From Chrysochromulina tobinii (Eukaryota): a DNA stretch of 42,383 bases. The DNA lies in NCBI GenBank assembly GCA_001275005.1, contig JWZX01002772.1, forward strand, positions 1-42,383, given 5' to 3'. Numbering within the stretch: position 1 is the stretch's first letter; each line of letters starts with the position of its first letter. The notes beneath the pieces were generated by a model. That model did not search any database and had not been told where the DNA came from. It worked only from the letters and a program-made list of their open reading frames with translations. Shown one piece after another: positions 18,104 through 19,999 of this stretch. The position numbers and the translations under genes are program-made.

Positions 18104-19999
18104 TCAGAACGCGAGGGAAGTGAACTCGCCCCTGTCGATCATCCCATCGCCATTCACATCGAGCGCAATGATGAGCTGCGGAAGGAGCGACGCGTGGCCG
18201 CCGGCACGGCCGACAAAGTTGGCAAGCTCTTCGCGTGAGACGCGGCCGTTGCCATCGATGTCGATCTCGCTGAAGACCTTCCCGAGACCAGCTCGGAGCT
18301 CGTCGGCTGTCAGCTCTCCGTCGCCGTCGGCATCAAACTGCGAAAAGCCGACGAGCCGGCGCCACTCATCCTTCATGCATGCTTCGAGCACAATGTCCTT
18401 GACGGGGCGGCACGATTCCTCTGACGGGACTGCCACGTGTGCGGAGACGTACGCCATCAGCGGCTCGATCACGTTCAACCCCATCAGCAGGACGCGATCG
18501 GTCGCGACTCGATAGACCTTGTCGCACTTGAAGGGTGCGCCGTTGATCGACTCGATCGCATGCGTCGCCGCATCGACCACCACGCCCGCATCGCAGTGCA
18601 GGAAGTTGGGTGCCGGCTTGGGCGAAGAGCGCGTAGCGATGAGGCACTCCTGGATGCATGCGCCCGTCAGAGGGATCGTGCAGAAAGGGCTGGCAAAGGC
18701 GAATTCGCCGAAGAGGTCACCCATCGTGAACGAGGTGCCGGGCTCATAGTCTTTGGCTGCGCGTACCCCTCCGCCCTGCACCATCGCCATGTCGACTTGA
18801 TCCTTGGCGAGGGCGCGCCGTACATAGGTGAGCAAGAAGGAAGCGACCCCGCTCGGCTCGAATCGGACCGTCTTCGAGCTCATCCGAGCGACCACCTGAT
18901 GAGGAATGCAATCAGTTGCAATCAGTTGCAATCAGGTGCAATCGGGTGCAATCAGAGGCGCCTCGAGCTCATCCGAGCGACCACCGGTGCGATCGGCGCG
19001 CGCATCATAGTGCCAATGAACTTCTGCTTCTCAAGCACAAAGCTCTTCACGGCCGGATCTTCGTCGAACTCATCAATTGGAAGCATCGTCACTTTTGAGC
19101 GCAGGGCGCCATCGGCGGTCCACCAGATGTCGACCACGCCGAGCTGACGCGCGTCCTCGCCCACCTTCACGATCGTGCTCTTGCCCGCCTCGTCAATGTA
19201 CACCTCGTGCTCGTGCCCTCCGAGTAGCACCGGTGTGCGTGTGCCCATCTCCGCGTGCCTCGAGAGGGCGACGGCGGTCTTCTTATCCTCCGGCACGAGC
19301 ATGTGCGTCATCGGCAGGCACACGTCGGGCGTCTTGCCCAGCTGCGCCTTCGCCTCCGCCCACGCCTCGGCTGCCGCCACCGCCGGCGGCTGGACCAGTG
19401 GTTTGTTGCTCGGAGAATAGATGGAGGTGTCCTCCGAAAGCAACCCCATCACGACCACGTGGCGCTCGCCCACCGCAAGCACGTCAAATTTGGGCAGCTC
19501 CCGGAACTTGGGCGTGAGAATATTGGTGTTCACGGCCTTCCCTCTGAATTGCGCCATGCGCGCCATCGGCACGTCGAACCCGAAATCCATCTCATGGTTG
19601 CCCAGCACCACGTAGTCCAGCTGGGCATGGTTGAGCGCCTCGGTCATCGCCCGCCCACCGTCGATGGCCGAGAGGACACATGGGGAGAGGAAGTCGCCGT
19701 TCAGGGTCGCCACGACGACGCAGTCGAGGCGAGCAGCTTCAGCCTTTGCCGCCCGAACTGCCGTCCCGACCCGCGGATAGTTGTCGAGCTTGTACACATC
19801 GTTGATGGTGAGCACTCGCAGGAACGTGCCCTTGGCCGTGCGAGGTCGCGGACCGAGAACAGCCGCCATCTTGGCCTCCTCCTCTGCCTTGGCCTGAGCC
19901 TTTACCTCGGTGGCAGTTGTGCCCAGTTTATTCGTGATCCTGACGTCGTCGTCGACGACGACCTCGTTCAATTTGCTCCCGAGGAGTCACATCGCCCAT
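18104..19999 (-). CDS. 5'-nucleotidase/apyrase-type calcineurin-like metallophosphoesterase with C-terminal EF-hands; intron 18984..18896
   Basis: Motifs TINDVY, NGDFLSP, LGNHEMD, MTH and GGHEH; C-domain QGGGVRA; EF-hands DADGDGELTADE, DIDGNGRVSREE and DVNGDGMIDRGE. A phase-0 intron joins the ORFs. ATG 19999 is 1 nt out of frame; first in-frame ATG 19869. Confidence 0.85.
18896..18984 (-). other. Spliceosomal intron (89 nt): duplicated exon sequence + (CTGATTGCA)n + CCTCATCAG
   Basis: GT..AG boundaries; in-frame joining of ORFs 18952..19971 and 18104..18931; VVARMSS is encoded twice. Confidence 0.85.

Follow-up and report, generated by a model that had tools for sequence, protein, structure and literature searches.

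How does a coding gene come to contain an intron whose first bases copy the exon that follows it? The question arises in a 5'-nucleotidase gene on the minus strand of the window, by which we mean the whole stretch of 42,383 nt that was analyzed. Positions 18874-18896 and 18963-18985 contain an exact 23-nt direct repeat. An earlier note on this DNA had reported it, and the copies are indeed identical over exactly 23 nt, with the match stopping there on both sides. The repeat brackets a 66-nt insert, which gives an 89-nt intron. When the window was simulated 30 times with an order-3 Markov model, the longest repeat with copies 40 to 150 nt apart reached only 14 nt, which rules out a chance repeat. 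The gene contains the following features.

18985 to 19869, minus strand: coding part of exon 1, the metallophosphoesterase half of the 5'-nucleotidase, with a start ATG chosen by us (open reading frame and Pfam).
18963 to 18985, minus strand: repeat copy on the 5' side; exon 1 ends with 18985, and the intron begins with 18984-18963, which include the GT donor (sequence repeat).
18956 to 18962, minus strand: filler of 7 nt, GGCGCCT, that separates the duplication from the array and may be a degenerate decamer (sequence).
18906 to 18955, minus strand: five CTGATTGCAN-type decamers, the last with the predicted branch point (period 10, 4.9 copies; family conservation).
18896 to 18905, minus strand: family 3' end TCCTCATCAG, which gives the AG acceptor (sequence).
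18896 to 18984, minus strand: intron, 89 nt, GT-AG, phase 0 (frame, spacing in homologues, and the 89-nt RNA skip in run X13).
18874 to 18896, minus strand: repeat copy on the 3' side, made up of the G from the acceptor AG and the 22 nt with which exon 2 begins (sequence repeat).
18104 to 18895, minus strand: coding part of exon 2, the 5'-nucleotidase C-terminal domain plus EF-hands (open reading frame and Pfam).

The intron contains 22 duplicated nt, GGCGCCT, five decamers, and TCCTCATCAG. The first G of the repeat has two roles, since it closes exon 1 and also completes the acceptor AG. The earlier note had the duplication supply the donor and the insert supply the AG. This stands with one refinement, that the G of the AG is shared with the first base of the repeat. 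As that note had also stated, the window intron has no terminal inverted repeats, beyond a 5-nt CTGAT/ATCAG match. Its folded structure was no better than that of shuffles (z 0.01).

Without splicing, the frame reaches a stop after 306 codons. With splicing, it is open to the end and encodes 558 aa, so the protein is restored as had been proposed. Pfam places Metallophos before the junction (a weak match, slightly below the cutoff) and 5_nucleotid_C plus EF-hands after it. The junction spacing of the spliced 558-aa protein is the same in 29 of the 34 aligned homologues, and the other 5 contain insertions of their own. The best named nucleotidase match is a Chrysochromulina parva model, at 60%. 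The AP-4 mu protein encoded in the window is 75% identical to that of Prymnesium parvum. The host lineage is a prymnesiophyte haptophyte.

The junction was recovered from RNA. In the polyA run X13, from a strain about 98.5% identical, one contig with a depth of 52.5 skips exactly 89 nt, with CT..AC ends; taken alone, it means either splicing or absence of the intron from that strain. In RNA run X14, contigs end exactly at 18896 and start exactly at 18963, and others span both unspliced junctions. DNA run X4 is continuous across both junctions and contains no joint, so the graph structure of X14 points to spliced and unspliced forms in one RNA run. The summed contig depth in X4 was 2882 over the decamer array and 45 in the flanks. 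An independent contig from another assembly (L209) is 100% identical across the site. An assembly artifact is ruled out by X4 and this contig. Runs X19 to X21 contained almost no matching words and were left out. The window intron is a spliceosomal intron. It has GT-AG ends, it is removed from the mRNA, and its removal restores the frame. Splicing checked by RNA refers to this intron only, and the other introns of its family are predicted.

The window also contains a 29-nt unit in six nearly identical copies between the calpain and nucleotidase genes (20350-20524). An 88-nt direct repeat with copies 158 nt apart lies where the GC content of the window is lowest (27435-27680). A 105-nt unit in 13.4 tandem copies is probably a coding repeat (40705-42114).

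The window intron belongs to a high-copy family that ends in CTGATTGCCTCCCTCATCAG (class A). Further introns predicted in the window are as follows.

21932 to 22078, minus strand: second class A member, in the calpain gene next door, with copies of 13 nt at 22020 and of 8 nt at 22078 (frame; Peptidase_C2 on both sides).
8939 to 9065, minus strand: predicted 127-nt GT-AG intron with related decamers, a different 3' end, and no long duplication (its removal opens the frame).

Removal of the predicted 147-nt calpain intron, which starts at 22078, restores the frame, and Pfam Peptidase_C2 flanks it on both sides.

The census was based on 122 metagenome loci (846 kb) that were picked by a strict class A pattern and are therefore biased toward class A. 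We removed 19 to 20 redundant loci before counting, and about 800 kb was counted. The strict pattern is estimated to occur in about 960 stretches of the whole collection. Prokaryotic genomes contained no match to it. In viral contigs, the loose pattern gave chance matches, and the strict patterns matched one contig each, both probably algal or chimeric. At L121:1-350, a viral contig of 37% GC is joined at a decamer to algal sequence at its end and is probably an assembly chimera. A duplication was called when an upstream copy of the downstream flank scored at least 9, and the control consisted of swapped pairs. A shifted-exon control gave 11.9%, a value inflated by tandem arrays, and the swapped control was cleaner.

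The sample contained 281 class A ends of the form decamer plus CCTCATCAG after redundancy removal. The flank was duplicated at 149 of these, compared with 1.6% of 1,369 swapped pairs, and the enrichment expected in the earlier note is thus present. The duplicated ends comprise 102 that follow no other family end and 47 tandem re-duplications; the other 132 of the 281 have no detectable copy. The duplication starts with GT in 77 of the 102 nontandem cases. Among 58 simple cases, it ranged from 9 to 55 nt in a continuous spread (median, 20 nt), and the intron was 72 to 95 nt long in 35. The duplication was perfect in 27 of the 58. Many duplications are young on this count, which partly supports the recent gain at a staggered cut that the earlier note had proposed. 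The last 20 nt of class A are strongly conserved. CTGAT fits the branch-point consensus. The last CTGAT is the best-conserved unit, with an A at -17 in 94%, and the earlier reading of it as a branch point fits. The sequences overlap at the AG side in 51 of 67 class A cases (background, 29%) and by at least 2 nt at the inner junction in 6 of 21 (background, 5%). Phase 0 was found in 31 of 39 introns, compared with 59% expected.

Orientation was scored with a codon model that called known open reading frames 474/24/102 sense/antisense/unclear (83% decided) and also decided 47% of random DNA. It called the downstream flank of class A ends sense in 126 cases, antisense in 10, and unclear in 35; a further 110 lay beside another repeat and were left unscored. 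Close neighbor copies lie on one strand in 80 of 83 cases. Antisense class A insertions with duplications occur in frame at L193:9920-10040 (87 nt) and L175:8090-8180 (63 nt), where they are read as protein in low-complexity regions. The C. parva protein model P0212 contains the antisense peptide of a decamer array, flanked by repeated EEREHL.

Decamer units are drawn from a small shared repertoire, and their type and length (9 to 12 nt) vary by locus. Strain pairs differ in array length, in place, and in the number of duplication-plus-cassette units. Among 11 strain pairs, no empty-site (intronless) allele was found. Family copies are overdispersed among loci (chi-square of 74 on 32 df). Local (cis) copying was rejected as a rule: same-locus pairs are on average no more alike than others, and very similar pairs made up 4 of 72 and 4 of 74, compared with 1.5%. 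In L137:3500-10700, one long gene region, class A ends (about 13) and several cores of class B (see below) all lie on a single strand. Tandem branch-point-like arrays (CTAAC, CTGAC, or CTAAT plus 4 to 6 nt) lie in apparent introns of L122, L159, L166, and L244, and the L244 array is flanked by a duplication.

Class B consists of GTGCTCACCACGGCGC, pyrimidines, and CCCACAG. It is a nonrepetitive 3'-end cassette with the layout of class A. The duplication was present in 48 of 69 cases, compared with 5 of 652 controls, and 43 of the 48 start with GT. Class C is the mirror image. Its 53-nt cassette starts with its own donor, and the acceptor AG comes from a copy of the upstream exon. The intron ends in such a copy in 9 of 15 cases (6 of 202 controls), and the exon before it ends in AG in 14 of 15. 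The 11 full-length class C copies have fixed ends and 0 to 4 changes from the consensus. Frames open when class C introns are removed; L176 is an example, between RecD2-type domains, and so is L169, in a stretch with IIPQDP, which we take to be an ABC-transporter-like motif. Classes B and C have a middle section in common, and 99 of these cores occur in about 800 kb. Complete copies with head plus tail amount to one or two clear cases. No terminal inverted repeats were seen at class B and C ends. Introns of classes A and B share one junction in L131 and again in L171, and each of them has a separate copy of the exon start.

Other fillers occur in the same setting. On the minus strand of L179, at about 11227-11309 of the reverse complement, a predicted 82-nt GC-AG intron of (CCCTAA)n lies in a duplication of about 22 to 25 nt, and its removal opens the coding frame. 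Interrupted direct repeats were also collected regardless of splice signals, and 169 of 236 enclose class A to C cassettes in this sample, which was seeded on class A. Noncoding DNA contains duplications of 14 to 38 nt around other, nonintron fillers (L144:3953, L175:885, L133:9373, L134:16622, and window 15091-15214). Some nonintron fillers recur in other loci, one of them at window 27275. No local templating was seen among 14 longer fillers. About 200 sites in the sampled DNA of the alga and its close relatives have the same or the mirror-image layout. The algal loci L179:14359-15468 and L133:2246-5542 encode Pfam NAD:arginine ADP-ribosyltransferase and SLATT effector domains. Class B, mirror class C, the telomere-repeat insert, and the antisense copies read as protein are new relative to what had been observed in the window.

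The system resembles several known ones in part. Similar introns lie in many unrelated genes (281 class A ends, 99 class B/C cores), as with introners in the broad sense. The similarity does not extend to both splice boundaries; one end is a locus-specific exon copy of 9 to 55 nt. The terminal inverted repeats and short, fixed target site duplications of MITE-type introners were not found. As with non-LTR (SINE-like) retroposons, classes A and B have a variable duplication, a fixed 3' end, a variable 5' end, and microhomology at the junction; class C is anchored at its 5' end. A telomerase-written insertion would consist of the host telomere repeat; the decamer is not TTAGGG, and only the separate L179 intron is made of such repeats. 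In short, the system works like an introner, but without fixed short duplications and terminal inverted repeats.

Direct repeats at intron gains in Daphnia are 5 to 12 nt long. Break-repair gains described in Daphnia and Aspergillus likewise have direct repeats around a captured, spliced filler (PMC3296678). Those gains are described as sporadic, their fillers are unrelated, and their repeats measure about 5 nt or more, whereas here the intron ends recur at an estimated thousands of sites. The same source reports no enrichment of break-repair repeats in Drosophila. Duplications made by introners are reviewed in PMC11282704. Introner-like elements of Polarella and Symbiodinium (classes 4/5 and 6/8/10) are described as recruiting the donor from the duplication, as here (bioRxiv 10.1101/2020.10.14.339549). 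The dinoflagellate duplications are given there as 3 to 8 nt and fixed per class, and the Symbiodinium type has inverted repeats; here, they are variable (9 to 55 nt), there are no terminal inverted repeats, and the cassette makes up about half of the intron. Introners from a marine Chrysochromulina MAG belong to the same genus-level group, have no terminal inverted repeats, and lie in genes in 98% of cases (Gozashti 2022). The family figured there carries its donor and co-opts its acceptor, like class C. The duplication is given as 4 bp, compared with 9 to 55 nt here, and the two are set apart by description rather than by sequence. Introner fam24 of Emiliania huxleyi (PMC12130899) co-opts a donor and carries an acceptor, as here, and is noted with 10-bp terminal direct repeats. 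It has five copies, two of them paralogous; its mechanism is given as unknown there, and its description includes neither variable long duplications nor a mirror class. Replitrons have target site duplications of variable length, as here, and one locus is reported from C. tobinii (PMC10288648). They are 0.9 to 3.6 kb long, contain a gene for Rep HUH, and have short direct repeats at their termini, and the account in that paper does not report that they make introns. Judged by its listings, the literature search returned no description of the present system; figures, introner consensus files, and supplements were outside this scope.

We lean toward a one-step origin for the window intron, in which a staggered break in the exon was filled with a 22-base duplication around a piece of the 3' end of another intron. 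A staggered break would produce a long duplication around the captured intron end. An existing intron would serve as the template for the cassette, most likely in the form of its excised RNA or of cDNA made from that RNA, and the copying would be done by the break repair of the host or by a reverse transcriptase that is borrowed. Under selection for splicing, the survivors in exons would be those whose duplication starts with GT or ends with AG, with a total of about 65 to 95 nt. Later, decamers would slip, and the duplication-plus-cassette unit would re-duplicate in tandem.

Copying from an existing intron, likely via RNA, is suggested because the cassette ends fall exactly on splice sites. 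Duplication and insertion appear to be simultaneous, since class C cassettes and duplications are equally young and duplication-free copies with head plus tail are rare. The need for GT in classes A and B and for AG in class C argues against a self-sufficient, full-length intron that inserted first. The geometry of target-primed reverse transcription and that of polymerase theta repair are general background here. Target-primed reverse transcription on sense intron RNA fits classes A and B but does not fit class C directly. Cassette copies lie nearly all in coding exons and in sense orientation, which counts against the capture of intron ends at breaks. Random break repair predicts many neutral intergenic copies, so targeting linked to transcription or splicing, or strong purging, must be added to it.

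The same placement keeps another explanation alive, since intergenic and antisense copies are scarce. An excised intron may reverse splice into an mRNA at an AG|GT-like site, and that RNA may then template break repair with homology on one side and microhomology on the other, leaving half an intron and a copy of the exon end. This would account for exon-only, sense-only placement, exact anchoring at splice sites, both mirror classes, the phase 0 excess, and different cassettes at one junction. It cannot yield the antisense copies, the telomere-repeat intron, or the noncoding duplications, and it predicts many complete, duplication-free copies, of which there are one or two clear cases among classes B and C. 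We consider reverse splicing quite unlikely. A dedicated mobile-element enzyme, such as a non-LTR or Penelope-like reverse transcriptase or a Replitron-type HUH transposase, would move short, nonautonomous cassettes, which would then be introners in the strict sense with target site duplications of variable length. Variable duplications and a fixed 3' end match target-primed reverse transcription, and class C copies are nearly identical with fixed ends. Non-LTR introners exist (PMC12130899), and variable-length duplications are reported for Replitron-1, with the one Replitron locus in C. tobinii (PMC10288648). We consider such an enzyme unlikely. A single layout is shared by three unrelated ends and a telomere-repeat filler, the cassette is anchored at opposite ends in classes A/B and C, and 797 kb contained neither an autonomous element nor a shared long upstream sequence. 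The 162 frames scanned out of 378 high-scoring open reading frames, from about 1% of a genome, included no reverse transcriptase or transposase families; this enzyme search is weak because the frames were picked by host-like codon use.

The duplications could also have arisen with no gain at this step, if older introns were remodeled in place. Either an aborted mRNA-templated loss would have put exon sequence where one intron end had been, or an intron end would have been duplicated in tandem and the first intron then lost. In line with this, 47 of the 149 duplicated class A ends stand in tandem after another family end, and the number of units varies between strains. The total length is about 65 to 95 nt, and duplication and cassette lengths trade off, which is partly a measuring artifact. 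Remodeling leaves the spread of shared cassettes without an account, and class C cassettes and duplications look equally young. GT directly follows 134 of 171 terminal class A ends, whereas in coding DNA it follows CAG in 4% of cases; unconverted copies are therefore few. Several homologues on contigs of 6 to 18 kb are recorded as single full-length proteins, which is indirect evidence against it. We consider remodeling improbable. The earlier note had proposed that the decamer array was synthesized at a staggered cut in a telomerase-like, reiterative manner, with a short RNA as the template. The array does consist of repeated units from a small shared repertoire, and the one true telomere-repeat insert indicates that such sequence can be captured. 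The proposal is not supported, because the haptophyte telomere repeat is reported as TTAGGG (PMC3622300), which differs from the decamer, and nonrepetitive cassettes behave alike. The nonrepetitive cassette, the mirror cassette, and the (CCCTAA)n insert share the layout; unit type and length depend on the locus, and array length changes between strains. Telomerase-like synthesis is very improbable.

Repair of a staggered break with a captured intron end is thus the origin that we prefer for the window intron. More tentatively, the alga may recycle the ends of its own excised introns as patches at staggered breaks in transcribed exons. We regard it as possible that a large share of its introns arose in this way, without transposons, which would be a previously undescribed route.

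Away from the search seeds, the density is about 1.0 class A copy plus 0.6 class B copy per 10 kb. The C. tobin genome is about 60 Mb, with about one intron per gene (PMC4580454). Extrapolated to about 60 Mb, with these figures borrowed from C. tobin, the family would comprise several thousand copies and a sizeable fraction of all introns. Intron gain here appears to be on a genome scale. In the account given by the C. tobin genome paper, introns come up once, and a repeat of this kind does not (PMC4580454). The Gozashti 2022 pipeline is described as removing low-complexity families, and a 2025 introner survey gives 0 families for C. tobinii (PMC12130899). Such surveys are built to miss this footprint because one end is locus specific and one family is of low complexity.

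How new spliceosomal introns originate has been debated for a long time, and recent surveys attribute them to transposons. If intron ends are recycled as proposed, introns would breed introns without a dedicated transposon. The patch would bring one splice site and the long exon copy the other, in either mirror arrangement, and the process would be recent enough to be followed in cultures. Every event retains a clock, in the two copies of the target, together with its junction scars, so models of break repair, reverse splicing, and retroposition can be tested in a culturable alga.
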